From an uncultured Methanomassiliicoccales archaeon (lineage in GTDB: Archaea > Thermoplasmatota > Thermoplasmata > Methanomassiliicoccales > UBA472), in NCBI GenBank assembly GCA_963695345.1, contig OY968769.1, positions 448,001 through 512,000 on the forward strand: 64,000 nt of DNA, read 5' to 3'. Each line of letters begins with the position of its first letter. Within the stretch, counting starts at the first letter, position 1. Both the position numbers and the translations under genes were made by a program. The notes beneath the pieces were generated by a model. The model did no database searches and was not told the DNA's origin. It saw only the letters and a list, made by a program, of their open reading frames with translations. Of this stretch, positions 13,264 to 56,696 are shown piece after piece.

Positions 13264-13436
13264 GGCTACCGATTCCAGCTAATGACAGCGGTCATGAAAA
13301 TACTTTGGGTTGGGGCGGCGGAAGTGGTCCATCGGTGAGGTTCGGCCTATATGCCGATGACCACCTGAATGGTCAATCATCGAGATGAAGGAGGAGTTAC
13401 GAACAAGATTATTAACCGGACCGCCTCTGAGCGTCC

Positions 13437-37641: not shown

Positions 37642-38421
37642 ATGAGGTTACATTCCATGAGGTTCAAGAACGAAGTGTTGGAGAGTCTGAAGAAATCGGT
37701 CGAATGCTGGGACTTGGAATTGGCCAGGAGCTCGGCAAAGGAAGCGTTGGAGCTCGGCATCACGCCTTCGGAGGCGATCGAGGACGGATTGAGCAAAGGC
37801 ATGACCAGCATCAGCCAGAGGTTCGATGAGGCGGTCATCTTTCTGCCCCAGCTGCTGGCCGCATCCCATGCGATGGAAGAGGCGATGAAAATATTGGACC
37901 CGGTGATGGGAGCGAACAGCGTTGCCAGAAAAGGAACGATAGTCTTGGGAACAGTCCTGGGGGACGTGCACGAGATAGGCAAGAACGTCATCGGGGCGAT
38001 GCTGCGCGGTGCTGGTTATCGGATCATCGATCTGGGTAGAGACGTATCGATTGGCAGATTCATAGACGAATGCAAGGTATCCAACGCCGATATCGTCGGC
38101 GCCTCTGCGTTGATGACCACCACATTGTGGGGTCAGAAGGCGATCGCCGAAGGAATAAGGGATGAGGGCATGCGCACCAGGACGGTCTTCGGAGGCGCCC
38201 CATGCAATCAACGTTGGGTGGAAAGTTTCGGCGGTGATCTCTATTGTCCCAACGGAGCCGAGGTGGTTGACATGGTGGAAAGGCTGATGGTCAGAATGAG
38301 ACTGGAGAATGCCATAAAGATGGAGACTGAACTGGACGGAAAACGACGTAGAGGCGCAAAGGATTGGAACTGCAACGTCATGAAGGGCATGACCTATGGG
38401 ATCAACAGCCTATCGCACTGA
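37642..38421 (+). CDS. Orphan MtmC-like corrinoid protein with C-terminal extension
   Basis: GDVHEIGKN, DLGRDV, SALMTTT, FGGAPC; N-terminus resembles both MtmC copies; likely start 37657. Confidence 0.85.
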   Translation: MRLHSMRFKNEVLESLKKSVECWDLELARSSAKEALELGITPSEAIEDGLSKGMTSISQRFDEAVIFLPQLLAASHAMEEAMKILDPVMGANSVARKGTIVLGTVLGDVHEIGKNVIGAMLRGAGYRIIDLGRDVSIGRFIDECKVSNADIVGASALMTTTLWGQKAIAEGIRDEGMRTRTVFGGAPCNQRWVESFGGDLYCPNGAEVVDMVERLMVRMRLENAIKMETELDGKRRRGAKDWNCNVMKGMTYGINSLSH

Positions 38422-39320: not shown

Positions 39321-39971
39321 ATGAGCAGAAAGGAAGAGATACTGAACCGGCTGAAGATAGCCGTCGAGACCTGGAACATCGAATTGGCCAGGTTTGCAGC
39401 CAAACAGGCTATTGAGCAGGGTATCGATCCTACTGAAGCCATCGTCAATGGGTTGGGCGAAGGAATGGTCAGCATCAGCGCGAGGTTCGACGAGGCGAAG
39501 ATATTCTTGCCCCAGGTGTTGGCCGCGTCCAAAGCCATGGAAGCGGCCCTGCAGGAGTTCGCCCCAGTCATGAAAGGATCTCCGGTCCAGACCAATGGAA
39601 CGGTCGTGATTGGAACGGTTCAGGGGGACGTACACGAGATCGGCAGGCATGTGGTCTGTGCATTCCTCCGCGGGGCCAGGTACAACGTCATTGACCTCGG
39701 TAGGGATGTCCCGTCAGAAAATTTCGTGGAAGCTGCGATCAAGTTCAAGGCTGATGTCGTGGGGGCGTCAGCACTAATGACCACGACCATGATAGGTCAG
39801 GCTCAAATAGTGGAACTAATTAAGGAGGCTGGCTTAAGTGTCAAAACTATTTTTGGGGGTGCGCCATGCACACAAAAATGGGTCGACAGCATAGGTGGCG
39901 ACGCATATTGCCCCAGCGGGGGCGAGGTCGTGGCCACTGTTGAAAGTCTACTGAGAAAGGCAAAGGATTGA
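39321..39971 (+). CDS. mtmC: Monomethylamine corrinoid protein
   Basis: GDVHEIG B12 motif; directly upstream of mtmB. Confidence 0.88.
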   Translation: MSRKEEILNRLKIAVETWNIELARFAAKQAIEQGIDPTEAIVNGLGEGMVSISARFDEAKIFLPQVLAASKAMEAALQEFAPVMKGSPVQTNGTVVIGTVQGDVHEIGRHVVCAFLRGARYNVIDLGRDVPSENFVEAAIKFKADVVGASALMTTTMIGQAQIVELIKEAGLSVKTIFGGAPCTQKWVDSIGGDAYCPSGGEVVATVESLLRKAKD

Positions 39972-39972
39972 A

Positions 39973-41355
39973 ATGAGCGTCGTGGACAAGGCATTGACGG
40001 TCTATGAGACGTATCTCAGGTCCGAGAAAGGCACCAAAATGCCAGAGAGCCATTGGGACAACAAAGTGGTTCCCGAAACAGCGACCATGCTGAAGGAAAA
40101 ATACCAGATCAAGTTCGGATCAGAGATCATTCCCACCGACAAGAAGATGATCAAGAATCTGTACCTGGCCGGTCTCGAAATGCTTGTTACAACTGGCATC
40201 TACAACGCCGATACTAGCAGAGTGGTCAAGGTCACCGAGAGCGAAGTCAAGGAGGGCATCAAGAAGGCCCCGAAGAGGCTTAAGTTCGGCGAGTACCGTG
40301 ATTCCGCTTATATGGAGCCCAGAAAGGGCAACTCACCCCAGAAACCGATCATCCAGGGAGGGCCGACTGGAGCAACCGTTTCGGAGGATGTTTTCATCCC
40401 TATGATCCAGAGCTACGCTCAGGAACCGGTCATCGATACCATCGTCAACGGCGTTATGGCAACCATTGATGGCATGCCCGCCACCACAAACACGCCATTC
40501 GAGATCAAGGCCACTCTGGCGGAGATCCGCGCCATACGCGAGGCCTGCAATCGTGCCGGCAGACCCTATATGGGCATATAGGGTCCGGAGACCCCCCTCT
40601 CCGCTGCGGGGCGTCTTGCCAGCGATCTCAAGGATTGTCTGAAGCCCAGTGACAGTCATGAGGTCTCCCAGCTGAATGAGATGAAGATCGACAATTCCGC
40701 CCTCAACATGATAGCAGGGTGGCTGCACAATGGCGATACTATAATGGTGGAGCAGATGCCCATCTTCGGCGGCTACATCGGAGGAGTGGAGGAGACCGCG
40801 ATCTGCGACGTGGCCACGACCCTGACGTCATTCACGCTTCTGAACGCCTCATATCACCTGGACGGTCCAATTCACATCCGCTGGGGAATAACCACCGCAA
40901 AGGAGACGCTGACGATAGCGGCAAATGTCGCTGCCGCAATCGATATGAACACTGACCTGTTGATCGCCAACCAGTATTACCCAATAGCCGGCCCATGCAC
41001 CGAGATGTGCCTTCTGGAAACGGCTGCCCAGGCTATGGTGGATACGGCCAGCGGGAGGGAACTGGTTTCCGGTTGTGCCGCAGCCAAGGGAGTAGCGGAG
41101 GATTACACCACCGGAATGGAAGCCCGGATCATGGGAGAGGCAGCGATCGCCACCGCGGGAATGAAAATCGACGACGTGAACAAGATCCTCGATAACCTGG
41201 TCCGCGGTTATCAGAAATCGTTCCCCCGTGCACCCCAGGGAAAACGATTCCAAGAATGCTACAATGTAAAGAAGGTCCTTCCAAACAAGGAATATCTAGA
41301 GGTCTATGAAAGGACCTGTGTGGCACTGAGGAATCTTGGCCTCGATATCCAGTAA
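39973..41355 (+). CDS. mtmB: Monomethylamine methyltransferase, Pyl at codon 203 (TAG 40579-40581), 460 aa
   Basis: IQGGPTG, MGI-O-GPETPLS, SQLNE, LDGPIHIRWG; frame continuous across TAG. Confidence 0.95.
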
Positions 41356-41612
41356 TGGATTGATCTTTCTTGTTCAATGGGAACATTCTTGGTCGTTCTT
41401 GGTGACACCACATTTTCTAGATTAAGACCATGGACGGTTCGATTTGACAAAGCCACTCAATCTGGACGGTCTTGATTATTGATGAAAAAATCAGTTTGGA
41501 GGCCCCATGCCCTTGCAGGGGACCCCCGAGGTGCGAAGAAAAAATTTGAGCTACAGAAGGGGTTTGGTTGGAGTAGTTTTCTATCTGGGGGGATAGACAT
41601 ATTCAGTGTAGC

Positions 41613-42992
41613 TCATTTCATATTCAGACCAAAGTTCCTCAAGGTCGCCTTTGCGCCGTCATATACCTTCAGATATTCATCTGTCGGCTTGACGGTCTTG
41701 ACATCGTAGCATTCCTGGAAGCGCTTGCCTGCCGGAGCCTTGTTGTAGCTCTTTTCGTAGCTGCTGATCAAGGTTTCCAGTACCTCGTTTACCTTGGATA
41801 TCTTCATACCTGCCGTCGCAATCGCCGCTTCGCCCATGATCCTAGCCTCCATGCCGGTGGTCTTGTCAATAACGACACCCTTGGCGGCCGCGGAACCAGA
41901 CAGCAGCTCACGTCCAGATGCGGTGTCGGTGATCGCCTGTGCGGCGGTCTCCAGCAGACACATCTCGGTGCATGGTCCTGCGATCGGATAGTACTGGTTG
42001 GCCAGCAACAGGTCGGTGTTGGCATCGATGGCCGCCGCCGCGTGAGCGGCGATCTGCAGGGTTTCCCTGGAGGTGGTTATGCCCCAGCGGATGTGGATCG
42101 GACCGTCCAGGTGGAAGTTGCCACTGAACAGCGAGAAGGAGGCCAGCGTCGTTGCGACATCGCAAATGGCTGTTTCCTCTATGCCGCCGCAGTATCCTCC
42201 GAAGATCGGCATCTGCTCCACCATTATGGTGTCGCCGTTCGCCGTCCATCCTGCGATCATGTTCAATCCGGCCATGTCGATCTTGAGCTCGTTTAGCTGC
42301 GATACCTCATGGGCGTCGCAGTTCCTCTGACCGCCAAGCAGGTCACCGGCGAGACGTCCCGCTGCGGACAGCGGGGTCTCTGGGCCCTATATGCCCATGT
42401 GCGGGCGGCCAGCGCGGATACGCGCCTCTCTGACTGCCCTCAGCTCGGCCATCGTGGCACGGATCTCCCAGGGCGTGTTGGTGGTGGCGGGGTGGCCCTC
42501 GATCGTGGCCATGACACCGTTCACCAGGTGATCAACGGTCGCCTCCTGGGCGTAGCTTTGCATGATCTGGATGAATACTTCTTCAGACACCGGAGCGCCG
42601 GTTGGGCCGCCCTGGATGATCGGCTTCCTGGCCTCGTTACCGTGACGCGGGACGAAATCGACGGCATCCTTATGCTCCCCGAGTACCAATTTCTTCGGGG
42701 TCTTCTTGATGCCTTCCCAGACCTCTTCCTCAGTGAGCGTGATGACTCTTCCCAGGTCTGAATTGTAGAACCCGCTGGTCACTAGCATGTCGAGACCTGC
42801 CTGGAACAGGCGGTTCATGAGGCCCTTGTCCTCTGGAATGATCTCTTTGCCGAATTGGATCTGGTATTTTTCCTTCATCAAAGCGGCGTTGGTCGGTATT
42901 ACCTTGTAGTCCCAATCCGCCTCTGGCAGTTTCTTACCGGCTTTCGAGCGCTCGTATGTCTCGAAGATATCGATTGGTCTTTGGGCTGACAT
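41613..42992 (-). CDS. mtmB: Monomethylamine methyltransferase (second copy), Pyl at codon 202 (TAG 42387-42389), 459 aa
   Basis: Same motifs; ORFs 42387-42992 and 41613-42275 join in frame via TAG. Confidence 0.95.
42351..42380 (-). promoter_or_regulatory. PYLIS-like hairpin starting 6 nt after the mtmB amber codon
   Basis: GAGAC-CCCGCTG-TCCG-CAGCGGG-AC-GTCTC (5+7 bp, UCCG loop). Confidence 0.55.
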
Positions 42993-42997
42993 TTTGT

Positions 42998-43639
42998 TTA
43001 CCTCCCCATCATCTGGTTGACCAATGCCACTGCTTCAGCTCCCGAGGGGCAGTACATGTCCCCGCCGATGCTCTCTACCCATTCGGGGTTGCATGGCGCG
43101 CCTCCGAAGATCGTCTTGGCGACGACATTCTCTTCCTTCAGCATGATGACAATGTCCTTTTGAACGGTGACAGTGGTGGTCATCAGGGCGGATGCTCCGA
43201 CGATGTCGGCCTTCTTGTCACGGGCAGCCTCTATGAACTTCTCAGGCGACACATCCCTTCCAAGGTCGATAACGGTGTAGCCTCCGCCGCGTAGCATAGC
43301 GCCCACGACGTTCTTTCCTATCTCATGGATGTCACCCTGAACGGTTCCGATGACGATTATTCCCTTTGCGAGGGTTGTGCCCTTTGCCATCGCAGGTTCG
43401 AGAATCTTCAACGCAGATTCCATGGCAGTAGATGCGGCCAGAACCTGCGGTAGGTAAATCTTAGCCTCATCGAACAGTTGACTGATCATCTGCATGCCCA
43501 TGCCGAGCCCCTTTTCGACGGCTTCCGACGGGTCGATTCCGGCATCGAGAGCCTGTGCTGCGGATTGCTTAGCCAGTTCGATGTTCCACGTTTCGATTGA
43601 CTTTTTAAGGTTAGCCAATATCTCCTCTTTTTTTTCCAA
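42998..43639 (-). CDS. mtmC: Monomethylamine corrinoid protein (second copy), TTG start
   Basis: GDIHEIGKN; GGAGGAG RBS; upstream of second mtmB. Confidence 0.88.
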   Translation of the reverse strand: MEKKEEILANLKKSIETWNIELAKQSAAQALDAGIDPSEAVEKGLGMGMQMISQLFDEAKIYLPQVLAASTAMESALKILEPAMAKGTTLAKGIIVIGTVQGDIHEIGKNVVGAMLRGGGYTVIDLGRDVSPEKFIEAARDKKADIVGASALMTTTVTVQKDIVIMLKEENVVAKTIFGGAPCNPEWVESIGGDMYCPSGAEAVALVNQMMGR

Positions 43640-43903
43640 TTTATTCTCCTCCTAGAAGAACGTGTTTTAATTGCAAAAGTATCATCTTCATTTTAGTATT
43701 AATAATTATGAGTAGCATTCGGATAGGTTAAAATATAGATATGTTGGGACTAAACAGCCTAAAAGATATCTTTATATATTAAATAATTAAGATGCTCCAA
43801 GCAAATAGCATAGTTTAAATATAATAAAACTTGATGCAAATGTAGGTGTTTGCTGAATATTCTCAGTAACGCCACCAAAATGCTGTATCAAGGGAGGAGC
43901 AAA
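43640..43903. promoter_or_regulatory. AT-rich divergent promoter region mtmC/mtbC
   Basis: TATA-like boxes (TTTATATAT, TTTAAATA); RBS on both sides. Confidence 0.6.
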
Positions 43904-44554
43904 ATGAGCGGAAAAGGGGAATTAGCAAAAAAAGAGCTGTTTGATGCAATTGTTGCATATGACAAAGATAGAACACTTAAGAGTGTTGAAGTGGCGCGGA
44001 GCGTTCTGACTCCACAAGAAATCATCGATTCACTTGCAGCTGGTATGAATGAAGTTGGAATAAGATTCGAAAGAGGTCGCCTATTCCTTCCTCACGTAAT
44101 GGTGGCTGCAAGTGCAATGACCTCGGGAGTTGAGATCATAAAGCAAGACCTCCCGAAAGGTGAGGGCGGTAAGAGTCTTGGCGTTATTGTCACAGGGACA
44201 GTGGAAGGGGACGTACATGACATTGGTAAATCCATCGTCTCCACGATGCTACAGTGCGCCGGATATGAAGTTCATGATCTGGGTAGAGATGTCCCTACAA
44301 AGAACTTCATTGACACAATAAAGGAAAAGAAAGCAGACATGGTCGGTCTGTCCGCATTGATGACCACATCTATGCAGACCCAGCGGGAAGTCATCGAGAA
44401 TTTGGTAGAAATGAATTTGAGAAAGAATATTAAGGTCATGGTGGGTGGCGCGCCAGCAACTCAATCATGGGCGGACAAGATTGGCGCTGACGGTTATGGA
44501 GAGAACGCTAGTGAGGCGGTCAAGAAGGCCGGAGAACTCCTCAAGAAGAAGTGA
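43904..44554 (+). CDS. mtbC: Dimethylamine corrinoid protein
   Basis: GDVHDIGKS, SALMTTSM, VGGAPATQ; upstream of mtbB. Confidence 0.88.
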   Translation: MSGKGELAKKELFDAIVAYDKDRTLKSVEVARSVLTPQEIIDSLAAGMNEVGIRFERGRLFLPHVMVAASAMTSGVEIIKQDLPKGEGGKSLGVIVTGTVEGDVHDIGKSIVSTMLQCAGYEVHDLGRDVPTKNFIDTIKEKKADMVGLSALMTTSMQTQREVIENLVEMNLRKNIKVMVGGAPATQSWADKIGADGYGENASEAVKKAGELLKKK

Positions 44555-44585
44555 GAAATGCCAGTGTTCAAGGAGGTAAGAGAAA

Positions 44586-45993
44586 ATGTCAAACGAATAT
44601 GCGCTTAGAATGGGAGATGGCAAGAGAGTCTATCTTTCTAAGAAACAGATTGTGGATGATGTTACCGCCGGTTCGGAAGATGCTGCAGATCTTGGGAGCA
44701 TCCCAACCATGAGCTCCGAGGACATGGAAAGGCTCGTGGAAATTCTGATGATGCCTGGGAGAATGGTGGGCGTTGAGCATGGGATGGAAGTGCCGGTTAC
44801 TCATGATATCGGAACTATCCGCCTAGATGGAGATCAGGGTAACAGCGGAGTCGGAATTCCCTCCAGCAGATTGGTCGGAATGATGACACATGAACGGGCT
44901 CTAGGGGCAGACTCTATGGAACTTGGTCACATCGACTATAGTTTCAAACCAGTCAAACCGGTGATCGCCCAAGAGATGCAGACGATGGAGATCGTCCAGC
45001 AGAACATGATTGTTCCGGTGCTTTACGGTGCGATGCCGAACATGGGCCTCTATTATCGCCCTGATGGTCCCTTTGACAACCCTGGTGACCTCATGAAGGC
45101 CTTCAAAATCGAGGAGGCTCAGAGATCGACAGAGCATGCCGCAGAGCATTTGACACGCGACATGATCTGGGTAATGCAGAGAATTATGAAATCAGGATCA
45201 GATGGAGTCAACTTTGACACTACTGCGGCTGCGGGAGATGGCGATTTCTTTGCCACACTCAATGCGATCGAAGTATTGAGGAAGGAATTCCCAGAAATGT
45301 ATATAGAATCCGGTATGGCTGGAGAGCTTGTACTTGGAATGCATGGAGAACTAAAGTACAAAGGTGAGACCCTTGCCGGCATGTGGCCTCATCAACAGGC
45401 AAAAATGGTGGCCAAGGCTGGTTCTAACATTTTTGGCCCGGTGGTCAATACCAACACCAGCAAGTCAGGTGCCTGGAACCTGGGAAGGGCCGTCACCTTC
45501 GTGAAAGCTGCGGTTAAGGCATCTCCAATACCTTGTCACGTAAACATGGGGATGGGCGTCGGCGGAATACCGATGTTTGAGACCCCCACGATTGATGCGG
45601 TCTCCCATGCTAGCAAGGCGATGGTCGAGATCGCCCATGTCGACGGCATATAGGTTGGGGTCGGCGACCCGATGGGTATGCCGATCACACACGTAATGAC
45701 GTCCGGAATGAGTGGACTCAGGGCAGCAGGCGATCTGGTCTGTAGGATGGAGTTTGCGAAAAGCATGAGAATCAACGCAGGCGAAGGAGTTCGTTGCCAA
45801 GAAGGTGGGAGTCGACACCGTGGACCTCAGCGACGAATTTGTCATGCGAGATATCAGAGAGAGTCTCGGAATTGGCGTAGTTACCTCAGTTGCAGGAGCG
45901 CCGAAAGGCATTGCAGCCAAGATGAACATAGAAAAATTATTGGGCATCAAGATCAACTGCTGCGAAAAGTTCAGGGCACAGGTGAAGAAGTAG
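44586..45993 (+). CDS. mtbB: Dimethylamine methyltransferase, Pyl at codon 356 (TAG 45651-45653); +1 frameshift near 45777
   Basis: [49 protein letters not shown]; ends TAG-TAA. Confidence 0.93.
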
Positions 45994-46108
45994 TAAAAAA
46001 TCAAACGCTTAATCTATCTATCTCTGGACCAGCTTCTAACTGTTAATTACCTTAGGTCCAGAGAGCGGTTTTTTCTACATTCAGTGGAGGAGAGAGGAGG
46101 GGTGATTC

Positions 46109-47590
46109 ATGGTTGATATTCAAGAAGGAGGAGGTAGTCCTATGGAAACCGAGTCGAAAAAAGGGAATTCGAACGAACTACAAAGGACTATAGATTGGAA
46201 ACAAGGATTAATGATAGCTGTTGGCGTACCATTGTTGATATTGCCATCGATTGGCTATACTGCAAGTTATCTTTGGGCAGCTGCGATAATACTCTGGGTG
46301 GCATCGGTTCTTCAGGGATTCATGCAGAATATTGCCTATGGAGAAATGGCGACGGCGTTCCCCAAAGCATCAGGGTTGCCTGGTTTTGCCCAAGCTGTAT
46401 TTAAAACAAATAATAATGTAAATAAATATGATAGAGGAAAGTTAATCGGCGGATTCAGCGCCTGGGGCTATTGGTTTGCCTGGAATCCGGTATTGGCGAT
46501 CTTTTCATTGACAATCGCAAGCTATCTGCAGGGTATGATTCCGGCATTGGCTGATTACGATTTCGTGTCATTAGCCTTAGTTTGTGGGGCGTTAATATTC
46601 GTGGCCTTAATTCTCATAAACATGAAAGGATTGGCGAACGGCGCCAGGATCGGATTGATTCTAGCAGTAGTGTCTCTTATCCCGTTGATTGTAATCTCGA
46701 TAGCGCCATTTGCCACTGGTGATTTCAACGTTTCGAATATCACTAACAACTTGGTGCCCACGGGTTGGACGTGGGATTGGCAACATATTCTGATAATCTT
46801 TGGTCTATTTGCCATCGCCCAATGGAGTGCGTGCGCGTGGGAGACTGCGGCAATTTATGGACCACAATACAAGAAACCTGGTTCGGATGTGCCCAAAGCA
46901 CTATTCACCTGTGGGATAATTTGCTTAATTATCTTTGCCCTTGTTCAGACATCTGTGACTGGTACACTGGGCATTGATGGCATTCTTGCACAACCGGTCT
47001 CGCCCCTAGTACCCATGGCTGAAACGACATTTGGCTCGCTCGGTTCATCTGTCATGATTGTCATGCTCGTAGCTGCAATGATCTTGATAATCCAGACGGC
47101 GTTCCTGGGCTCTGCAACGTCGATGCACTCCATGGCGTCTGAAGGAAATCTTCCAAAATTCTTCAGCAAGTTGAACTCAAGTGGAGTTCCAGTTCGGGCA
47201 ATGATCGCAATTGCACTATTCAATATGGCACTGATCTCTCTGAAGACCCCGACCGCAATATTAGCCGCCTCAGCGATTGGATACACTTGCGCCAACGGAA
47301 TCAGCCTTTTTGCGTATGTCAAGGCGAAGAGGGATCCAGAGCTAAAGAAGTTGAATAGGCCGTTCAAGGCACCACGGGGCTGGACATATGTTGCCCTTGC
47401 ATTCGGGCTGTTCAACATTCCACTCTGTCTAATTGGTGTCATGTATCTGAACAGTCTAGAAAGTGGGATAACGGCAATCATTGTCGGAGTTATCGTTCTT
47501 GCAGCCTATTTGCCGATCTGGTTCTGGTCTCAGCATAAGAATTCAGAACTCCAAGAAAAAGAGGGAGTAATGGAGGCGGCTGAGGAGTAA
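46109..47590 (+). CDS. APC-family methylamine permease (MtbP/MtmP-like)
   Basis: ~12 hydrophobic segments, WSACAWETAAIYG, follows mtbB. Confidence 0.8.
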   Translation: MVDIQEGGGSPMETESKKGNSNELQRTIDWKQGLMIAVGVPLLILPSIGYTASYLWAAAIILWVASVLQGFMQNIAYGEMATAFPKASGLPGFAQAVFKTNNNVNKYDRGKLIGGFSAWGYWFAWNPVLAIFSLTIASYLQGMIPALADYDFVSLALVCGALIFVALILINMKGLANGARIGLILAVVSLIPLIVISIAPFATGDFNVSNITNNLVPTGWTWDWQHILIIFGLFAIAQWSACAWETAAIYGPQYKKPGSDVPKALFTCGIICLIIFALVQTSVTGTLGIDGILAQPVSPLVPMAETTFGSLGSSVMIVMLVAAMILIIQTAFLGSATSMHSMASEGNLPKFFSKLNSSGVPVRAMIAIALFNMALISLKTPTAILAASAIGYTCANGISLFAYVKAKRDPELKKLNRPFKAPRGWTYVALAFGLFNIPLCLIGVMYLNSLESGITAIIVGVIVLAAYLPIWFWSQHKNSELQEKEGVMEAAEE

Positions 47591-48000
47591 ACAGGCATTG
47601 AATTGAGAGTTCTATGGACAGAAATGACTGTCCATTCTAAATCATTTTCATCCCTTTACGATAAAATGTATCAAAATGATGAGAGTTAAGAATGGATGGA
47701 ATTCGTTCGCTAATTTGATCAGGAAGGAAAAATCTGGAGAGGAATGCCTTCAACAATTCTGTCCATAACAATTCATGGGATGATGCATGGGAACGTTTTC
47801 GAACAATAGGCTCGCCCGGTCTTCTTTGGACTTGTTATTTCATGTAGACAATCACCAAAATGGAAGCCGTTCATAGCCGAGAGGATTAGATGGTGTCTGA
47901 TCCGGCCACCGTGAAGGCGGCATACTGACAAATATGGAATTAGAATTGAGATAAGATGCATCCATAATTGTCAGCGCCGGTTGAAAATTCACCAGATTTG

Positions 48001-49569
48001 AAGGCTGTCCCATTATTGAGTTTTCAGAGTGCCGGTTGAATTTTTACTATCAAATTTGTTCGATATCTTAACGCCTGTTGAGTAAGATCCAACCGGCCGT
48101 TCCTCTTCTGACAGAATCAGGTCCGCAGTCCGATCCTATTGGTCCATAGCTTCCTCAGGTTATGGCCCATACAAGCCAGCGTCCACTCGCTCCTTACTCT
48201 TCTTAAACCCTTACAGAAGAATTCTCGCACTCCGCGATTCTCTTTGATGTTTCCGAAGAAGCACTCGACGGTGCGACTTCGCCTGGAGAAGATGGCATGA
48301 CCCTCATCGGTGAGCAGCTTGGCCGCCATCTCCTCCATGACCGTTGGGGCTCGTTTCTTGATCCGTGGCGGGCGTTTCATCCTGGTGTCGTAGCTTAACT
48401 GGGTGACGATGTACAGGTCGACTCCGTCGCCCTGTTCGACCATTGGAGTATTGAAGTAGCCAGCATCGGCCAGAAGTTTTTCAGGCCGTCTGTCCTTAAA
48501 TTTCTCAATCTCGTCCAACATCGGCAACAGCTGATTCATATCGTTGCAGTCCTGGACGGCGACCTCGGCTACGATTACCTGGCTGTCGCAATCGACCACC
48601 GCCTGAGCATTGTACGCCTGGGCGTATCCGTTCTGAGTAATCATGATCCTGCACTCTTGGTCCGATGGATTCCTCCGCTCTGATCTCTTCTCGAGCTCCA
48701 TCTTCGACTTCCTGCTCCTGACCTTCCTCCCCTTCGCTGCCCATTCTTCCTCCAGGCGGAGCCGTTCCTCGATCTTCGCCTTCTGTTCCGCTTCCGCCTT
48801 CTCCTCTGCCTCCTTGAGCTGGCGGAGTGTATCGGCGATACGCTGCCTCCTTCCATCCCTGCGTCTCAGGGACGGCGGCAACGGATTCCCGTCATCATCG
48901 CCAAGTCGATCATCCTCGTCTTTATCGGCCTTTCCGCCTCTTTCATTATCCGATCGATCCTCTCGTCGATCTCGTCTAGCTCCTTCTGCAGGTCCTCCTT
49001 CTCCATGTTCTTCTAGATGTTCGCGTTCGCCTTGATCTTCGTTCCATCCAGTGAAACAACCTGGAGATCGGCTAGACCTTCTTCCGCGCAGAGCTGGACG
49101 ACCTGGCGGAACGCTTCCGCATGCTCGGTGCGGAAGCGGCAGATTGTTCTGAAATCGGGAAAGTTATTTGATGCCAGCACACGGAACGCAATATTCTCCC
49201 TCGTTGCTAAAAGAGATCTGTCTGGATGATCGAAGGCCTAAGCTGTAGGCATAGGCCAATATCTTGACCATCATCTTCGGGTCGTAGGGCGGGTAGCCAG
49301 GTGCTGGGGCATATCGGGCATAGATCGATGCCAGGTCCGGTTCATCGATCACTTCGGAGATGAAGTAGGCCAGATGATCCTCGGGTAGCCATTCATGAAG
49401 GTCCGGAGGCAATAAAAGCGTCTGGTCGGGATCGTATCGACGGAACGTCTTTTTCCGAGCTGGCATGATATCATTCACGCCATCTGAATTTATTTAAAAA
49501 TTGTAACCAGATTTGTTACTAAATCCAAATATAAATTAGTCAGAATCTATATAAAACTGTGACAGTCTC
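48001..49569 (-). mobile_element. IS1182-family insertion sequence
   Basis: Transposase motifs; imperfect terminal IRs AAGGCTGTCCCATTATT (48001) vs GAGACTGTCACAGTTTT (reverse complement of 49553-49569), 12/17; no clear target duplication. Confidence 0.75.
48117..49478 (-). pseudogene. IS1182 transposase with two homopolymer frameshifts (~49210, ~48932) and an in-frame TAG (49013-49015)
   Basis: LLLPPDLHEWLPEDHLA, PYDPKMM, SSRQI, PDFRTI, LDGTKIKANA, YNAQ, LADAGY, VECFFGNIK, HNLRK. Confidence 0.8.
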
Positions 49570-50199
49570 CAGAAATGGATAAAATTCAACTGCCACTAAC
49601 AATCATGAGCGAAAAAACTGAACGACAATAGTATAATATCCGTTAACATGATCATAAATGCGGAGGAAAATGATCGAGCTAGAGAAGATATTTGGTCCAT
49701 CAAGTCAGTAGTAATTGAATAGGAAGGACGATTAAAAATTCCTTACTATGATTATCTATTGGAATATGATGATTAGTTTAGAGAAGAATATTGTGACCCA
49801 TTGGATTGGAGTTCACGGCAGATGTGGTGATTTTTGTTCTTTACCGATTGGCCATTTAGGGCCTCCTCTCTCCTTTGCCATTCTAAAGACGTTCAGGATT
49901 GTACCAGATAAAACCGTCGGCCGTTGGGTGAAATAGGAAGTAATGAAGAAGATGCTCGTCTAGGTTCCTAAACATAATCCTAGGAGGTCAGATGAACGAT
50001 GAAACACTATTCATTTACTATAAATAATTATGAGGTATTAAAAGAATGATTTATATACTGATGTTACAAGACTTAACAGTCAATAGGTTAAATTTATATA
50101 TAATAAATTAAAGAGGAAGTCAATGTCTAATAATATTTATATATAAAGAATCTCGATACTCGAATAGACGTTAATCAAGTCACAATCGATGTCAGGTGG

Positions 50200-50640
50200 A
50201 TGGGCGTCGGCGGAATACCGATGTTCGAGACCCCGACGATCGATGCGGTCTCCCATGCTATCAAGGCAATGGTCGAGATCGCTCATGTCGATGGAATATA
50301 GGTTGGGGTCGGCGACCCTATGGGTATGCCGATCGAACACGTCATGACATCCGGTATGAGCGGACTGCGCGCAGGCGGAGATTTGGTCGCACGCATGGAA
50401 TTCGCCATGAGCATGCGCCTGAAGGATGCCAAGGAATACGTGGCTAAGAAGCTGGGAGTGAACCCGATGGACCTGAGCAACGAACATGCCATGAGAGAGG
50501 TCAGGGAAGCGTTCGGCCTGGGCGTCATCACCTCGGTGGCGGGTGCCCCGAAGGAGATAGCAGCGAAGATGAACATCGAAAAGGCGCTGGACATCGAGAT
50601 TAACTGCTGCGAGAAGTTCAGGAACCAGCTGAAGAAGTGA
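50200..50640 (+). pseudogene. mtbB: 5'-truncated second mtbB (C-terminal 146 codons, Pyl TAG retained at 50299-50301)
   Basis: [20 protein letters not shown]...[14 protein letters not shown]...AAKMNIE, collinear with 45552-45993. Confidence 0.85.
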
Positions 50641-50697
50641 GAATAGCCGGAACTAGCGATGAATAATTTGGTGGATTAAAGAAAGGAGGAGAAAACA

Positions 50698-52185
50698 ATG
50701 GGACAACACTACTACCCCGGAAGGGATAGATTGGAGGGCGTAAAGCTCGAGATGTTCAATACGGACGATCTCAGGCAGATCGATTACGCCAGTATGGAAG
50801 TGCTGCTGAACCCTGGCGTACAGGTTTCTGATGTAGAGGCAAGGAAGCTCTTCAAGGAAGCCGGATGCGAGGTCAACGAATCGACCAGGATCGTCAAGAT
50901 CCCCCAGTGGTTGGTCCGCAAGGCATTGATGATGGCGCCCTCGAAGTTCTATCTATACGGAAGGGACAAGAAGAACACAGTCCCCCAGGAACACAAAGGC
51001 AAGGTCCACTGGACCTGCTTCGGTACTGGGATCAAGATGTGTAACTACCTTGGACCAGGCAACTTCAAGACCGTCGACTCGACCGAGAAGGACGTCGCCA
51101 ACACCGCGAAGATCGTTGACTGGGCGGAGAACGTGGATTACTACTCACTGGCAGTGTCCGCAAGGGACTGGGCAGGAAAGGGCGCACAGGACGTGCACGA
51201 GACCCTCACCTCGCTGTCCAACACCACGAAGCACTTCCAGCACATCGACCCCGTCGGAGGCAACGTCGAATTCTACTGGGAAATCGCCAAGGCCTACTAC
51301 GGTGGCAACGAGGAGATGGCCCGCGCTAAGCCGATATTCTCGATGCTGCTATGCCCGACCAGCCCGCTGGAGCTGAGCTCCAACGCCTGTCAGGTCATCA
51401 TCAAGGGCGCCAGGTTCGGAATCCCGGTCAACGTCCTGAGCATGGCCATGTCCGGAGGGTCCTCGCCGATATTCCTGGCCGGTACCCTTGTCACCCACAA
51501 CGCCGAGGTGTTGGCAGGCATCACCCTGTCCCAGATCGCCCAGCCGGGCGCAAAGGTCTGGTACGGAAGCTCCACCACCACCTTCGACGTCAAGAGGGGA
51601 ACCGCTCCGGTAGGTTCACCAGAACTCGGAATGATCAGCGCCGCTGTGGCCAAACTTGGACAGTACTACGGACTGCCCACGTTCGTGGCGGGCATATAGG
51701 CTGACGCCAAGATACCTGATGTACAGGCAGGTCACGAGAAGACCATAACGACCCTTCTCCCCGCCCTCGCCGGTGCTAACACCATCTATGGTGCAGGTAT
51801 GCTTGAACTTGGCATGACATTCTCGATGGAGCAGCTTGTAATCGACAACGACATAATCGCCATGACGAAGAAAGTGATGTCCGGGATCCCGGTAAACGAG
51901 GAGACCATGGGAGTGGAATCGATCCAGAAGGTTGGAATCGGCAACAACTTCCTGGGACACAAGTCGACCAGGGCGAACATCAACCTACCGTCGGACCCGA
52001 TGCTGATCAACAGGGACATGATCGGAGACTGGACCGCGGCCGGATCGAAGGATCTGATAACCGTGGCCCACGAGAAGGTCCTGAACATCATGAAGACCCA
52101 CGAGGTAACACCAATCGACGCCGACCTGCACAAGGACATGGTCGCGATCATGAACAAGGCGGACAAGGCGTTCCAGGGTAACTAA
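50698..52185 (+). CDS. mttB: Trimethylamine methyltransferase, Pyl at codon 334 (TAG 51697-51699), 495 aa
   Basis: [44 protein letters not shown]. Confidence 0.95.
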
Positions 52186-52198
52186 GGGGGACAAATAA

Positions 52199-52858
52199 AT
52201 GTCAAAAGCAAACGAAATAATCGAGAAGGCGAAGAGCGCGGTCCTGGCATACGATCAGGAGGCCGCAGAGGAAGTGGCGCAGGAGGCGCTGAAGGCAGGG
52301 ATCAGCCCGGTCGATGTGATCCAGCTCGGATTCACAAAGGCAATGACGGAAGTCGGCGACAGGTATGCCGCCAAGGAGCTCTATTTGCCCCACGTCATCG
52401 CGGCCTCGGAAGCCATGACCGCCGGAGTGAAGATCCTCACCCCGGCCCTGGAAAAGATGGGCGGCGACCAGTCGAAGGGATTGGGGACCGTGGTCATCTG
52501 CACCATCGAGGGAGACATCCACTGCATCGGGAAGGACATCGTCGGCATCATGATGAAGGTCGCCGGATTCAACGTCATCAACCTGGGCAGGGACATCCCG
52601 GTCAAGGAGATCGTGGCGGCAGTGAAACAGCACAACCCATTGGCGGTCGGAACCTCCGCCCTGATGACCTCGACAATGGTCAACCAGATTGCCGTGGAAG
52701 AGATGCTCAAAGAACAAGGGATCAGAAAGGGCGTCAAGACCATGGTCGGCGGTGCTCCATGCACCCAGCAGTGGGCCGACAAGATCGGGGCCGACATCTA
52801 TGCCGAGAACGCGGGCGATGCGGTCAACCGGCTGAAGGCAGTCGTTGAGCAGAAGTAA
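52199..52858 (+). CDS. mttC: Trimethylamine corrinoid protein
   Basis: EGDIHCIGKDIV, SALMTSTM; follows mttB. Confidence 0.9.
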   Translation: MSKANEIIEKAKSAVLAYDQEAAEEVAQEALKAGISPVDVIQLGFTKAMTEVGDRYAAKELYLPHVIAASEAMTAGVKILTPALEKMGGDQSKGLGTVVICTIEGDIHCIGKDIVGIMMKVAGFNVINLGRDIPVKEIVAAVKQHNPLAVGTSALMTSTMVNQIAVEEMLKEQGIRKGVKTMVGGAPCTQQWADKIGADIYAENAGDAVNRLKAVVEQK

Positions 52859-52935: not shown

Positions 52936-54006
52936 TTGGTGGATTTGGAAGAAAGGAGACAATTGGAACATAAGAAAAGGATCAGGATAGGGTATCTCAT
53001 GGCTCTGTTCTGCGCCATCCTGTGGGGCCTTTGGTACCTGCCGGGAAACGCCCTTTGGAGCTTGGAGCCGTTCTCGTCGATGTTCACTGCGGTGGATGCC
53101 ACCCATGGAGGCACGGTCGCCCTGATCGTTGTGGCGGTGCTGATATCTGGGTTCAACGCAATCACCGTGATTATCGCCCTGTTCATCTGGAATGGCGGAC
53201 TCGGCAAATATAAGGAGATGTACCGGACCGCCAGGCAGTTCAGGCCATGCACCAAGTACTACTTCTTCGCATCCATATTCGGCGGACCGATGGCGATCCT
53301 TGGTTCATTCATGGCCATGGGATTTGTCGGAGCGGCTTTCGCAGCGGTCGCGGCCCTGTTCTATCCGGTCGTAGGATCCCTGCTATCATATTACTGGCTC
53401 GGCCAGAAGGTATCGAGGAGGGCGCTCATAGGAATTCTGATCATCGTGTTCGGAAGCCTTGCTATCTACGCCGGAGGCCTGATAAACGACCTCACCAACG
53501 GAGGCGGCAACGTCATGGGCTACGTAGGTGGCCTGATGGCTGCGGCCGGCTGGGGCATTGAGGGAGCAGTAGCCGCTAAGGCACTGGACATTTCGGAACC
53601 GGACATCGGCATCACGCTCAGGTTCCTGGGTGAGAACATCATCTGGTGGGTCGTCGTCATACCGATACTATTCCTGCTGGGATTCCCGATGTACGACTAT
53701 GCGTTGCAGGTCTTTGAGCCGACGGTGCTGCTGGTCCTGCTGATGGCGGGTATAACCTTTGGTTTCTGTTATGTCGCCTGGTACAAATCCTTCCCCCTCA
53801 TCGGCGTGGGGAGAGGACAGGGCATTGGAAACCTCTACGGAATATTCGCAGTGGTATTCATCGCGTTGTTCGTCGGAACCATCCCGGAATGGACGATCTT
53901 GCTCGGAGGAGTGATGTGCATCATCGGCAGTTTGGTCATGTTCACCGAAGGCAGCATTGCGCTGGAATCGTTGAGACGTGACGAACCCAAGGGGGAAACG
54001 AAATGA
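52936..54006 (+). CDS. mttP: Trimethylamine permease (DMT/EamA family)
   Basis: ALFCAILWG.WY, FGGPMA, AAAGWGIEG, WYKSFPLIGVGRG; synteny. Confidence 0.8.
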   Translation: MVDLEERRQLEHKKRIRIGYLMALFCAILWGLWYLPGNALWSLEPFSSMFTAVDATHGGTVALIVVAVLISGFNAITVIIALFIWNGGLGKYKEMYRTARQFRPCTKYYFFASIFGGPMAILGSFMAMGFVGAAFAAVAALFYPVVGSLLSYYWLGQKVSRRALIGILIIVFGSLAIYAGGLINDLTNGGGNVMGYVGGLMAAAGWGIEGAVAAKALDISEPDIGITLRFLGENIIWWVVVIPILFLLGFPMYDYALQVFEPTVLLVLLMAGITFGFCYVAWYKSFPLIGVGRGQGIGNLYGIFAVVFIALFVGTIPEWTILLGGVMCIIGSLVMFTEGSIALESLRRDEPKGETK

Positions 54007-54290
54007 CGGCTGAATATCCGATCAAGTTCAGGGTCCTCGAGCTGTTCAGTGACGGCAAGGACCACTGGAACAGCGAGATAGTCAAGACCATCATGAAAGA
54101 GTACGGGATCACCTCGGACTTCGGCAGGGACTCCATCAACTTCGACCTCATCGAACTGGCCGCGGGCGGCATGATCAAGGAGATCGATGTCAAACTGGAT
54201 GACGGTTCCTACAAGAAGGAGGCGTTGCTGCACAAGTATGTGATCACCGACTTCGGGAAGGTCCGCCAGAAGGACACCTGTGTGATGTAA
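54003..54290 (+). CDS. Small winged-helix-like hypothetical protein coupled to mttP
   Basis: ATGA overlap; helix-helix-helix-wing pattern ending YVITDFGK. Confidence 0.65.
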   Translation: MTAEYPIKFRVLELFSDGKDHWNSEIVKTIMKEYGITSDFGRDSINFDLIELAAGGMIKEIDVKLDDGSYKKEALLHKYVITDFGKVRQKDTCVM

Positions 54291-54305
54291 TAAGGAGGAA
54301 ACAAA

Positions 54306-54443
54306 ATGACAAACGCAGAAGTAATGGTCGATTATTTCGCTAACGGTTTCATCCCAAGCTCCGACATACTCTACATGGTGGTCATCGTGGCGGTCGCCGC
54401 GATAGCTCTGTGGCAAGCGAGAGTATTCGTCGCTAAGTTCTGA
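54306..54443 (+). CDS. 45-aa single-pass membrane peptide (not in ORF track)
   Basis: AGGAGG RBS; MTNAEVMVDYFANGFIPSSDILYMVVIVAVAAIALWQARVFVAKF. Confidence 0.65.
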   Translation: MTNAEVMVDYFANGFIPSSDILYMVVIVAVAAIALWQARVFVAKF

Positions 54444-54662
54444 CGCATGGAAGGTATCTACCTGACGAAAGAACTGAGACCACAAACCCTTTCCCCATCT
54501 TTCCTTTCAATATACTATCAACAGACCGGGGCTCAGAAAATAATGAAAGAGACAAACCCGATATCATCGCCGGAATTCACCTATCCTGGATCAGAGCCAG
54601 ATAGCAAAGAAAACCTTAAATTCGGAGTCGTTCATCAATCCTTAGCTGAGCAATCTCACAAT

Positions 54663-54733
54663 GGAGGGTTGGTCAGGGACCGCCGGGCCTCTACAGCTAT
54701 GGCAGCCGGGTTCGATTCCCGGGCCCTTCGCCA
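54663..54733 (+). tRNA. pylT: tRNA-Pyl (anticodon CUA, 54691-54693)
   Basis: Acceptor GGAGGGT/GCCCTTC, G discriminator, encoded CCA; D-arm GGTC-AGG-GACC; interrupted anticodon stem; T-arm CCGGG-TTCGATT-CCCGG; upstream of pylS. Confidence 0.95.
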
Positions 54734-54771
54734 CTATTCTCAACGCATCCTCTTACCCCGAGGTGGATAGG

Positions 54772-55599
54772 ATGCCGATTATCTGGACCTCTTCCCAATC
54801 CCAGAGAATTCGAGAGCTGGGCGGGGAACCCAAGCAGAATGAGGAGTTCCCCACGGAGGAAGAGAGGGAGAAAGCTTTCTCGGTGCTAATCGAGAAGCTT
54901 CAATCTCAACACCGAAAGATGATCCGCGATCTCTCCGCCAATCCCCGCAGGCACCAGCTTGCCGAGCTGGAGGGTTCTTTGGCCAACATGCTTGTGGGCA
55001 AGGGATTCCTCGAAGTAAGGACTCCTACCATCATTTCCTACGAGGCCCTCAGGAAGATGGGGATCACGAAGGAGCACCCCCTCTACGAACAGGTCTTCTG
55101 GCTTGATGAGAAGAGGTGCCTGCGGCCGATGCTGGCACCCAACCTGTACTTTCTCATGAGACAACTGAAACGGAACGTGAAGATGCCGTTGATGATGTTC
55201 GAGATCGGGACCTGTTACCGCAAGGAGTCACACGGCAATTCTCACCTCGAGGAGTTTACCATGCTGAACCTCGTGGAGATGAGGCCGGACATTGACGCGA
55301 CAGAGCGGTTGAGAGAGCATATCGTGTCCGTCATGGACCTCATCGGCCTGAGATATGAACTGGTGGCCGCCGAGTCCGAGGTATATGTCAGCACCATCGA
55401 TGTGGAGGTCGGTGGTGTGGAGGTCGCATCGGGCGCGGTTGGACCCCATGTCCTTGACAAGGCCCACGGGATCACAGACCCATGGGCGGGAGTGGGGTTC
55501 GGGTTGGAACGCCTGCTTCTGATGAAGAGCGGCGACCTGAACATCAAGAAGGTGGGTCGGAGCCTGATCTACCTCAACGGAGCTAGGATCGATATCTGA
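54772..55599 (+). CDS. pylS: Pyrrolysyl-tRNA synthetase lacking the N-terminal domain (275 aa)
   Basis: LRPMLAPNLY, CYRKES..HLEEFTMLN, GFGLER; GAGGTGG RBS. Confidence 0.96.
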   Translation: MPIIWTSSQSQRIRELGGEPKQNEEFPTEEEREKAFSVLIEKLQSQHRKMIRDLSANPRRHQLAELEGSLANMLVGKGFLEVRTPTIISYEALRKMGITKEHPLYEQVFWLDEKRCLRPMLAPNLYFLMRQLKRNVKMPLMMFEIGTCYRKESHGNSHLEEFTMLNLVEMRPDIDATERLREHIVSVMDLIGLRYELVAAESEVYVSTIDVEVGGVEVASGAVGPHVLDKAHGITDPWAGVGFGLERLLLMKSGDLNIKKVGRSLIYLNGARIDI

Positions 55600-55601
55600 G
55601 G

Positions 55602-56696
55602 GTGAACAAGATGATTGCAGAGGATGATCTAGATATCATAATGTCAAAGGCCCGTGACGGGCGGGTTCTGGGCGATGGAGAGATCGCCTATCTCCTGGGC
55701 CTTCGCGATGAGCTGTCCGTCGGAAAGCTTTTCGAAGCGGCGCGCGACGTAAGGGACAGGAACTTCGGCCACAAGGTGTTCCTGTATGGCTTCGTTTACT
55801 TTTCGACCCACTGCCGGAACAACTGTTCCTTCTGCTTCTACAGAAGATCCAACGAAGAGAGCGTGAGGTACCGTAAGAACCGGGAGGAGATCATCGGCCT
55901 GGCCACTGCGCTGGAGGATTCCGGCATCCACCTGGTCGACCTGACCATGGGGGAGGACCCGCTGTACCACGGCAAGGCCGGCCACCACGAACTGATCGAC
56001 CTGGTCCAGAACGTGAACGATTCGGTCAACGTGCCCATCATGGTATCCCCTGGCGTAATGCCCAGGGAGATGTTCGCCTCGCTGCGGAACGCCGGGACGG
56101 ATTGGTTCGCGTGCTATCAGGAGACCCATAACCGTGAGCTCTTCAGCAAACTGCGCCCCGACCAGGACTACGACGTCCGCCTGAACCAAAAGACCTGGGC
56201 CGGGGAGGGGGGAATGCTGACGGAAGAAGGCATCATGATCGGCGTTGGAGAGACGATCGCCGACCGGGTGAACTCCATCAGGATGATGGGAAGGCTGGGA
56301 GTGCAACAGGTGAGGGCCATGACCTTCGTTCCGCAGGCGAACACCCCGATGCAGGGGATGCCTTCAACGTTGATGATCGAGGAATTGGTGACCCTGGCGG
56401 TCATGCGGCTGGTGCACCAGGATAAGCTCATCCCGGCCAGCCTGGACATCGAAGGAGTCAAGGGTCTGCGCCCACGATTGGATGCAGGCGCGAACGTGAT
56501 CACGTCCATAATCCCCCCTAGCAGAGGCCTGGCAGGAGTAGCCCAGCATGAACTGGACATTGAGAATGGGGAACGATCGAAGGGCAATATCGAGGACATG
56601 CTGGACGCGATCGGGATCAAGGTCGCCAGATTGTCCGAGTACACTGGCCTGATCGCCTCCCGGAAGGACAGGCTGGGAATCGAGGTGATCCAGTGA
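55602..56696 (+). CDS. pylB: Methylornithine synthase (radical SAM)
   Basis: YFSTHCRNNCSFCFYR, LTMGED, YQETH, IPASLDIEG. Confidence 0.95.
   Translation: MNKMIAEDDLDIIMSKARDGRVLGDGEIAYLLGLRDELSVGKLFEAARDVRDRNFGHKVFLYGFVYFSTHCRNNCSFCFYRRSNEESVRYRKNREEIIGLATALEDSGIHLVDLTMGEDPLYHGKAGHHELIDLVQNVNDSVNVPIMVSPGVMPREMFASLRNAGTDWFACYQETHNRELFSKLRPDQDYDVRLNQKTWAGEGGMLTEEGIMIGVGETIADRVNSIRMMGRLGVQQVRAMTFVPQANTPMQGMPSTLMIEELVTLAVMRLVHQDKLIPASLDIEGVKGLRPRLDAGANVITSIIPPSRGLAGVAQHELDIENGERSKGNIEDMLDAIGIKVARLSEYTGLIASRKDRLGIEVIQ

Follow-up and report, generated by a model that had tools for sequence, protein, structure and literature searches.

How does a cell in which UAG is ambiguous, serving both as a stop and as the codon for pyrrolysine (Pyl), secure Pyl insertion in its key enzymes? 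The question is raised by a 64,000-nucleotide stretch of DNA from an uncultured Methanomassiliicoccales archaeon (assembly GCA_963695345.1, contig OY968769.1, positions 448,001 to 512,000), here called the window, which carries mtmB, mtbB and mttB, the Pyl-containing methyltransferase genes for mono-, di- and trimethylamine. A sequence-only reading of the window had noticed that its five Pyl codons share the context GG(C/A)-ATA-TAG-G, and had proposed that the ATA directly 5′ of the UAG (the -1 codon) is a signal that marks the UAG as Pyl rather than stop. Comparison with orthologues from two archaeal orders indicates that this one silent codon is under selection, most likely in a quantitative role.

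The shared context in the window

The reported context was recovered in full, with the TAG in frame at the Pyl position in 5/5 cases. Shuffled sequences would give 0.08 copies of the pattern GGMATATAGG in the window; there are six, and five of these matches are the Pyl sites already named. The sixth, GGCATATAGG at 13346-13355 on the minus strand, had been missed; it is intergenic and outside any Pyl gene, lies between the replication factor C small-subunit gene (minus strand) and an open reading frame (ORF) at 13437-14369 (plus strand), upstream of the replication factor C gene, and is probably a chance copy unrelated to the Pyl sites. Because the bare hexamer ATATAG is not enriched in the window (11 found, 9.46 expected), the signal is specific to the Pyl sites. 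ATC is, as had been judged by eye, the majority Ile codon (67.1%, with 21.7% ATA and 11.2% ATT in 1858 crude ORFs), and the five window genes contain 27 ATA, 94 ATC and 18 ATT codons when the five Pyl-adjacent sites are counted.

The five sites are not independent, since one lies in a duplicate (the mtbB fragment) and two lie in paralogous copies of mtmB (68% identity); the number of independent events in this genome is about three to four. The three families, in agreement with the sequence-only reading, have no detectable homology to one another (hhalign probabilities 0.1%, 2.8% and 0.07%), so the feature that they share is the adjacent UAG. Deep homology that would place the tripeptide G-I-O at one ancestral position was rejected on the same hhalign result. 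A general codon-pair bias for ATA before TA- was likewise rejected, as Ile before Tyr (TAY) is encoded by ATA in 22% of cases genome-wide.

Codons before pyrrolysine in orthologues

Orthologues were drawn from Methanomassiliicoccales and Methanosarcinales only, and came from four sources: 201 genomes of the window's order, searched per family; 60 further stretches from the same order; 80 loci with 10 kb flanks from named genomes, found by MtbB alignment and mostly from Methanosarcinales (Methanolobus, Methanosarcina, Methanomethylovorans and Methanosalsum); and 151 Methanosarcinales genomes searched for mtmB. Once duplicates, matches under 250 residues, sequences containing N and TAG-less paralogues had been removed, 401 TAG-containing genes remained (145 mtmB, 141 mtbB and 115 mttB). 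The window genes combine a Pfam match with a single in-frame TAG at the conserved position, and each listed orthologue has one TAG.

Where Ile precedes Pyl, it is encoded by ATA in 224 of 239 deduplicated genes, with ATA against any other Ile codon at 94 versus 3 in mtmB, 111 versus 12 in mtbB and 19 versus 0 in mttB. The full tallies at -1 are, for mtmB, ATA 94, GTT 24, GTC 12, GTA 10, ATC 3, ATG 1 and CTG 1; for mtbB, ATA 111, GTA 8, ATT 7, GTC 6, ATC 5, GTT 3 and TTA 1; and for mttB, ATG 30, ATA 19, TCG 15, ACC 13, TCC 12, ACT 7, GTC 5, GTT 5, ACA 3, TCA 2, AAC 2, GCC 1 and GTA 1. All 15 cases in which Ile is not ATA are confined to one family of Methanomassiliicoccales, f7 (probably Methanomethylophilaceae), which is the largest family in the sample and has small genomes.

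Two side observations concern the spread of these genes. The window MtbB shares 75-82% identity with its Methanosarcinales counterparts but only about 60% with f7 MtbB of its own order (loci L091-L170 versus L044-L060), and an MtbB tree places 91 sequences from the two orders in a single clade, which suggests that mtbB may have been transferred between the two orders. A protein search for bacterial Pyl genes gave archaeal-type matches only, mostly 333-aa fragments ending at TAG. One metagenome-assembled genome labelled Tissierellaceae bacterium (G205; loci L104 and L235) has mtbB and mtmB on contigs of about 2 kb, both with ATA-TAG and 54-78% identical to archaeal genes; these are possibly a binning contaminant.

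Selection on the synonymous site

As a control, the -1 codon was compared with the other columns of the same codon-aligned sequences. ATA makes up 12-28% of the Ile codons in these genes, and every other conserved Ile column is codon-mixed, with ATC or ATT dominant and ATA in the minority. Across Methanosarcinales, the window's family and its sister family f6, only 2 of 177 conserved degenerate columns in mtmB and 2 of 230 in mtbB are codon-monomorphic, and the -1 ATA is among them in both genes. A stricter test was limited to columns with an invariant amino acid and at least three-fold degeneracy, in sequences outside f7 with Ile at -1. Of the 66 such columns in mtbB (91 sequences, mean amino acid identity 0.82, minimum 0.54) and the 69 in mtmB (64 sequences, mean identity 0.67), the -1 ATA alone is monomorphic, and among the 38 of mttB (17 sequences) it shares this property only with the adjacent GGC. 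By share of A-ending codons, -1 ranks first of 256 columns in mtmB, of 222 in mtbB and, in families f1 and f6, of 270 in mttB. Synonymous codons at -1 are not equivalent: the constraint lies on the codon, beyond the amino acid. Relatedness, gene conversion and transfer would act on all columns alike and so cannot account for the -1 ATA. Read in this way, the alignments indicate that the -1 ATA is kept by purifying selection on the synonymous site in all three families in this lineage, and that, in two abundant enzymes of two archaeal orders, no other synonymous site is as constrained as this one silent codon.

The -1 site changes often in f7, where ATC, ATT, GTN and ATG are all present, and enrichment was counted there as monophyletic same-codon groups. 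In mtmB, 14 of the 17 Ile groups have ATA (p 5e-6), as do 14 of the 23 in mtbB (p 1e-6); even in this family ATA is enriched 3-4 fold, and orthologues do not fall back on ATC or ATT at background frequency, the outcome on which the sequence-only reading had been prepared to give up its proposal. Among Val groups GTA is also enriched (7/20 and 7/15 against a background of 10-11%), and GTG never occurs. Transition toggling among Val, Ile and Met was rejected as the source of ATA, because the f7 Ile groups (ATA 28, ATC 7, ATT 5) are unlike the Val groups (GTA 14, GTC 12, GTT 9); no such toggling at -1 was found among the sequences compared outside f7. Avoidance of CTAG would explain the missing ATC, but GTC-TAG, TCC-TAG and ACC-TAG are common at Pyl sites; a simple rule of a purine at -1 fails in turn, with GTG never used and TCC, ACC and GTT frequent.

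Another codon shows a similar pattern. Ser at -1 in Methanosarcinales mttB is encoded by TCG in 15 of 26 cases, although TCG makes up 2% of the Ser codons in those genes. In one clade (loci L093-L170) this rarest Ser codon is fixed at -1 (15/15), and the other conserved Ser columns have TCG in at most 5 of 38 sequences. TCG in the mttB clade is thus a second unusual codon held before UAG. Separately, across the mttB and mtbB loci the -1 and +4 bases co-vary in mttB: a purine stands at -1 in 27 of 34 cases with G at +4 and in only 11 of 45 with T, and the -1 codon is ATG in 29 of 36 cases with A at +4. The clades are few, and this covariation may be phylogenetic.

Pyrrolysine sites and TAG terminators

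Terminators were anchored as gene ends located by homology to the proteins of the window's methylamine cluster. By this measure TAG is the stop codon of 10 of the 171 f1/f6 genes, of 1 of the 364 from f7 and of none of the 335 from Methanosarcinales. The -1 base of the ten f1/f6 terminators is G in six, C in two, T in two and A in none, and five of the ten genes are mtmB genes that also have ATA-TAG at the Pyl site. Among crude ORFs, with Pyl sites removed, Ile before a TAG terminator is ATA once, ATC four times and ATT three times. A crude estimate of TAG-stop use from ORFs in the flanks (f1/f6 16.7%, f7 15.7%, Methanosarcinales 4.4%) was rejected; its two GC-rich values were set aside because repeated -1 codons suggest spurious antisense ORFs, and the homology-anchored terminators were used instead. 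The near-absence of TAG terminators in f7 agrees with the shares given in passages of two published papers, which are 1.6% for 'Ca. M. alvus', 4-5% for Methanosarcina and 11% for M. luminyensis (PMC4153887, PMC3941956). The rarity of TAG terminators in f7 may lie behind the relaxed -1 constraint there. Methanosarcinales, however, avoid TAG terminators and yet keep ATA strictly, so the link between TAG use and ATA is not a simple one.

Two further observations belong here. In five f6 mtmB genes (L004, L008-L011) an internal Pyl ATA-TAG-G is followed by a terminator TAG after CCG, AAC or AGT, with the next in-frame stop 20-38 codons further on in four of the five and none within the stretch examined in L011; these genes are natural test cases of two contexts in one mRNA. 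Across the whole genome (G000), TAG-ending crude ORFs have G at +4 in 40%, against 29% at TAA or TGA (odds ratio 1.67, p 7e-5), and G is likewise the +4 base of the window's Pyl UAGs, apparently a termination-type 3′ context.

A possible P-site effect on UAG decoding

The alignments show selection at the codon level directly 5′ of the UAG, which recurs in three non-homologous gene families and is weaker in one archaeal family (f7). From these we infer that the efficiency of UAG decoding is the selected phenotype and that the agent is the P-site tRNA or the -1 nucleotide. Archaeal AUA is read by an agmatidine-modified tRNA-Ile2, and the release factor aRF1 is the archaeal homologue of eRF1. With the UAG in the A site, the P site would hold AUA on the minor tRNA-Ile2 (agmatidine-C34), and an A would stand directly 5′ of the UAG. 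This arrangement could slow aRF1-mediated termination, or some other failure, relative to acceptance of Pyl-tRNA, and more full-length methyltransferase would be made per mRNA. We put the chances of such a quantitative P-site codon or tRNA effect, favouring Pyl-tRNA over aRF1, at about even. Since there are working Pyl sites without ATA and the TAG-ending crude ORFs of this genome do not avoid A at -1, AUA would be a quantitative enhancer and not a switch; Pyl insertion would neither require it nor follow from it alone. The agent may be tRNA-Ile2, the -1 adenine or slow decoding.

There are precedents in eukaryotes, according to portions of the papers concerned. In yeast ribosome profiling (Ribo-seq), AUA in the P site, as well as ACA, ACC and CUG, is linked to higher readthrough (PMC8087045); a study of New1 describes P-site tRNA isoacceptor identity as governing termination efficiency (PMC11160720); and a human-cell study associates G at -1 with reduced readthrough (PMC10954755).

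Several observations weigh against a P-site effect of AUA. Ile stands at -1 in 0 of 38 Methanosarcinales mttB genes (TCG 15, TCC 11, ACC 7, ACT 5), and 9 of 45 Methanosarcinales mtmB copies are non-ATA (GTT 7, GTC 1, CTG 1); 'A-V' paralogues of mtmB carry GTT or GTC, and Methanosarcina sp. T3 has one ATA copy of mtmB and one GTC copy. In f7, mttB has mostly ATG at -1 and no enrichment of A there, the column ranking 81 of 265. TAG-ending crude ORFs in the window's genome do not avoid A at -1 (87/328, 26.5%, against 443/1526, 29%, at other stops; p 0.38), and the ten anchored terminators, whose lack of A at -1 fits a context effect, are a small and interrelated set. Synonymous conservation is also strong immediately 3′ of the UAG, from +2 to +10 in mtbB and from +3 to +12 in mtmB. 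No single property is common to ATA, TCG, GTT and ACC; the -1 base, the tRNA wobble type and codon rarity each cover part of the pattern only. Finally, the sections covered of a ribosome-profiling study of M. acetivorans do not mention AUA (PMC13663744).

A more ambitious version of the P-site effect is possible, although we would not expect it to hold in full. AUA with tRNA-Ile2 in the P site would then be the long-sought cis/trans determinant of archaeal Pyl decoding, specifically weakening aRF1 at the next UAG; it would be held absolutely where UAG still terminates and would drift in f7 (1/364 anchored TAG terminators versus 10/171 in f1/f6), and the -1 context may compensate for a termination-favouring +4 purine. 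If AUA does act from the P site, archaeal termination by aRF1 would be linked to the eukaryotic P-site effects, gene callers would be helped to separate Pyl codons from stops, and amber-suppression design with PylRS/tRNA-Pyl could improve.

Alternative explanations

The ATA could instead belong to a local mRNA element, defined by sequence or by structure, that extends across the UAG, similar to the proposed pyrrolysine insertion sequence (PYLIS), and be kept for base pairing or protein binding. The synonymous conservation clustered right 3′ of the UAG in mtbB and mtmB means that RNA-level constraints exist near the site, and ATA could belong to such an element. The conserved codons are, in mtbB, +3 GTC (87/88), +4 GGC (87/89), +5 GAC (89/89), +8 GGT (86/89) and +10 CCG (85/86), and in mtmB, +3 GAG (43/43) and +6 CTG (40/43). 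For mtmB, RNAalifold gives a fold of only -2.9 kcal/mol, in which A(-1)-U-A-G-G-G pairs with downstream CC.CUGU; the pairs at the ATA and TAG bases never vary and hence are silent on pairing either way. For mtbB it finds no consensus structure (0 pairs), and conserved RNA structure was rejected as the explanation of ATA on these results. Moreover, the downstream sequences are wholly different among the three families, yet ATA is common to them. An RNA element of this kind thus seems unlikely to be what holds the ATA in place.

In mtbB of Methanosarcinales and Methanomassiliicoccaceae (L091-L170) the codons GGG GTC GGC GAC CCN after the UAG (45657-45671 in the window) are near codon-invariant. 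Read from the alignment, GGGUC-GGC-GACCC is a possible 5-bp hairpin that starts 3 nt past the UAG; RNAalifold does not call it. A hairpin so placed would be unwound with the UAG in the A site, given the ribosome footprint, and this counts against the RNA-element explanation.

Selection may alternatively favour a slowly decoded rare codon directly before the UAG, which we also consider improbable. ATA is a minority Ile codon in all lineages (12-28%), the TCG fixed in the Methanosarcinales mttB clade is the rarest Ser codon (2%), and at -1 f7 shows an excess of the minority Val codons GTA and GTT and a depletion of the majority codon GTC. However, common codons also stand stably at -1 (TCC and ACC in Methanosarcinales mttB, GTC in f7), and GTG, a minority codon (10-21%), is never found there. 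A rare-codon pause would in addition fall one codon before the UAG enters the A site, and no mechanism ties that pause to UAG decoding.

The strong form of the sequence-only proposal, in which ATA-TAG is a discriminating 'Pyl, not stop' signal, has very little chance of being right. It agrees with the ATA-TAG at all five window sites and with the 0/10 anchored f1/f6 TAG terminators that have A at -1. Such a discriminator is nevertheless absent from 38/38 Methanosarcinales mttB genes, and -1 is often taken by Val, Met, Ser or Thr codons; the crude ORFs include one genuine ATA-TAG terminator, and their TAG stops show no shortage of A at -1. Parts of two publications (PMC8211752, PMC12626013) also count against it, stating that a UAG in a foreign context is decoded as Pyl. 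What stands of the proposal is a 5′ context under codon-level selection in all three families, which, by its place 5′ of the UAG, is distinct from PYLIS as had been held; what falls is the mark that tells Pyl from stop, since there are natural Pyl genes without ATA and the TAG stops of the crude ORFs do not avoid A.

Chance with conservation of the Gly-Ile dipeptide, the caveat attached to the original proposal, or shared ancestry or horizontal transfer without codon selection, can be dismissed as extremely improbable: there are only three families and the window mtbB does group with that of Methanosarcinales (75-82% amino acid identity, clade of 91), but all the other invariant columns of at least three-fold degeneracy vary in codon (65 of 66 and 68 of 69), other conserved Ile columns are mostly ATC or ATT, and relatedness acts equally on all columns.

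Relation to known recoding systems

It is informative to set the -1 ATA beside known systems in which a stop codon is read through or recoded. As in the eukaryotic P-site codon effects, so far as described in portions of the two yeast-related studies (PMC8087045, PMC11160720), the codon 5′ of the stop would act here independently of the amino acid, and the yeast readthrough codons AUA, ACA, ACC and CUG are also found at -1 of Pyl sites. Unlike eukaryotic readthrough by a near-cognate tRNA, the competitor here is the cognate suppressor Pyl-tRNA(CUA), and the evidence here is evolutionary (synonymous constraint) and not a measured readthrough. PYLIS, the stem-loop proposed 3′ of the mtmB UAG, resembles ATA as a candidate for a non-essential cis enhancer of Pyl insertion. 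In contrast to PYLIS, the ATA lies 5′ of the UAG, is a single codon and is common to three families with unrelated 3′ sequences; it is not a conserved stem-loop directly 3′ of the UAG, and RNAalifold gives no support for its being part of a structure. Selenocysteine insertion by the selenocysteine insertion sequence (SECIS) and SelB resembles Pyl insertion in that a non-standard amino acid is assigned to a stop codon. SECIS, however, is an obligatory structure with a dedicated elongation factor, whereas the ATA is dispensable, being missing from 38/38 Methanosarcinales mttB genes and from many f7 genes, and implies no factor. The iPASS rules for amber suppression (PMC8216290) likewise hold that nucleotides on both sides of the UAG modulate tRNA-Pyl decoding; they come from mammalian cells and engineered sites, and the portion of that paper covered describes no natural conserved -1 codon.

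A 2021 review and a 2025 PNAS study, in the parts covered, know of no conserved cis cue for Pyl insertion (PMC8211752, PMC12626013). We found no mention of the codon before the Pyl UAG in the covered portions of the literature on Pyl genomics, gene prediction, archaeal recoding and ribosome profiling, the 2025 PNAS study and a 2024 Chem Rev review, a scope that leaves priority possible in the older Pyl literature. The selection on the -1 ATA points to an upstream context effect on Pyl UAG that is so far undescribed within the literature covered.

Genomic context of the methyltransferase genes

The coordinates of the five genes and of their neighbours are given in Table 1. The pylS-like and pylB-like genes together show the locus to be a Pyl island; besides these and the corrinoid protein genes, a permease gene is also among the neighbours of the methyltransferase genes (Pfam). 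The genome is a single 2.56 Mb contig of 56% GC, for which completeness is 85% only, though the contig is closed, and a genome-wide search found no further copies of the MtmB, MtbB or MttB families in it. No tRNA gene, pylT included, was found in the window by ARAGORN or beside the pylS-like gene (53900-54800) with Rfam; as ARAGORN finds only 34 tRNAs in the whole genome, tRNA detection is probably incomplete, and tRNA-Ile2 and pylT were not located.

Table 1. Methyltransferase genes, their Pyl sites and neighbouring genes in the window
Feature	Position	Strand	Pyl codon (TAG)	Codons before it	Match
mtmC-type corrinoid protein gene, adjoins mtmB1	39321-39971	+			Pfam B12-binding, B12-binding_2
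mtmB1, monomethylamine methyltransferase	39973-41355	+	203 (40579-40581)	ATA 40576-40578; GGC 40573-40575	Pfam PF05369, E 5.9e-229
mtmB2, mtmB1 paralogue (68% identity)	41613-42992	-	202 (42389-42387)	ATA 42392-42390	Pfam PF05369, E 1e-238
mtbB, dimethylamine methyltransferase	44586-46046	+	356 (45651-45653)	ATA 45648-45650	Pfam PF09505, profile positions 1-396 of 463 only
Second mtbB copy, 3′ fragment	50200-50640	+	34 (50299-50301)	ATA 50296-50298; GGA before	Pfam Dimeth_Pyl, profile positions 321-463
mttB, trimethylamine methyltransferase	50698-52185	+	334 (51697-51699)	ATA 51694-51696; GGC before	Pfam PF06253, E 4.4e-80
Corrinoid gene	37642-38421	+			Pfam B12-binding, B12-binding_2
Corrinoid gene	42998-43639	-			Pfam B12-binding, B12-binding_2
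Corrinoid gene	43850-44554	+			Pfam B12-binding, B12-binding_2
Corrinoid gene	52199-52858	+			Pfam B12-binding, B12-binding_2
pylS-like class II aminoacyl-tRNA synthetase core	54661-55599	+			Pfam match; name pylS from context
pylB-like radical SAM gene	about 55600-56696	+			Pfam match; name pylB from context

The full-length mtbB is itself disrupted. Relative to a same-genus orthologue and to the downstream fragment it has a 1-nt insertion near 45776-45781, which leaves its last ~87 residues out of frame; the true C-terminus is in the next frame and ends in TAG-TAA. Downstream lie a DDE transposase gene (48117-48881) and then the 3′ mtbB fragment with an intact C-terminus. The broken mtbB is either a pseudogene with an insertion sequence (IS)-linked duplication or the product of an assembly indel.

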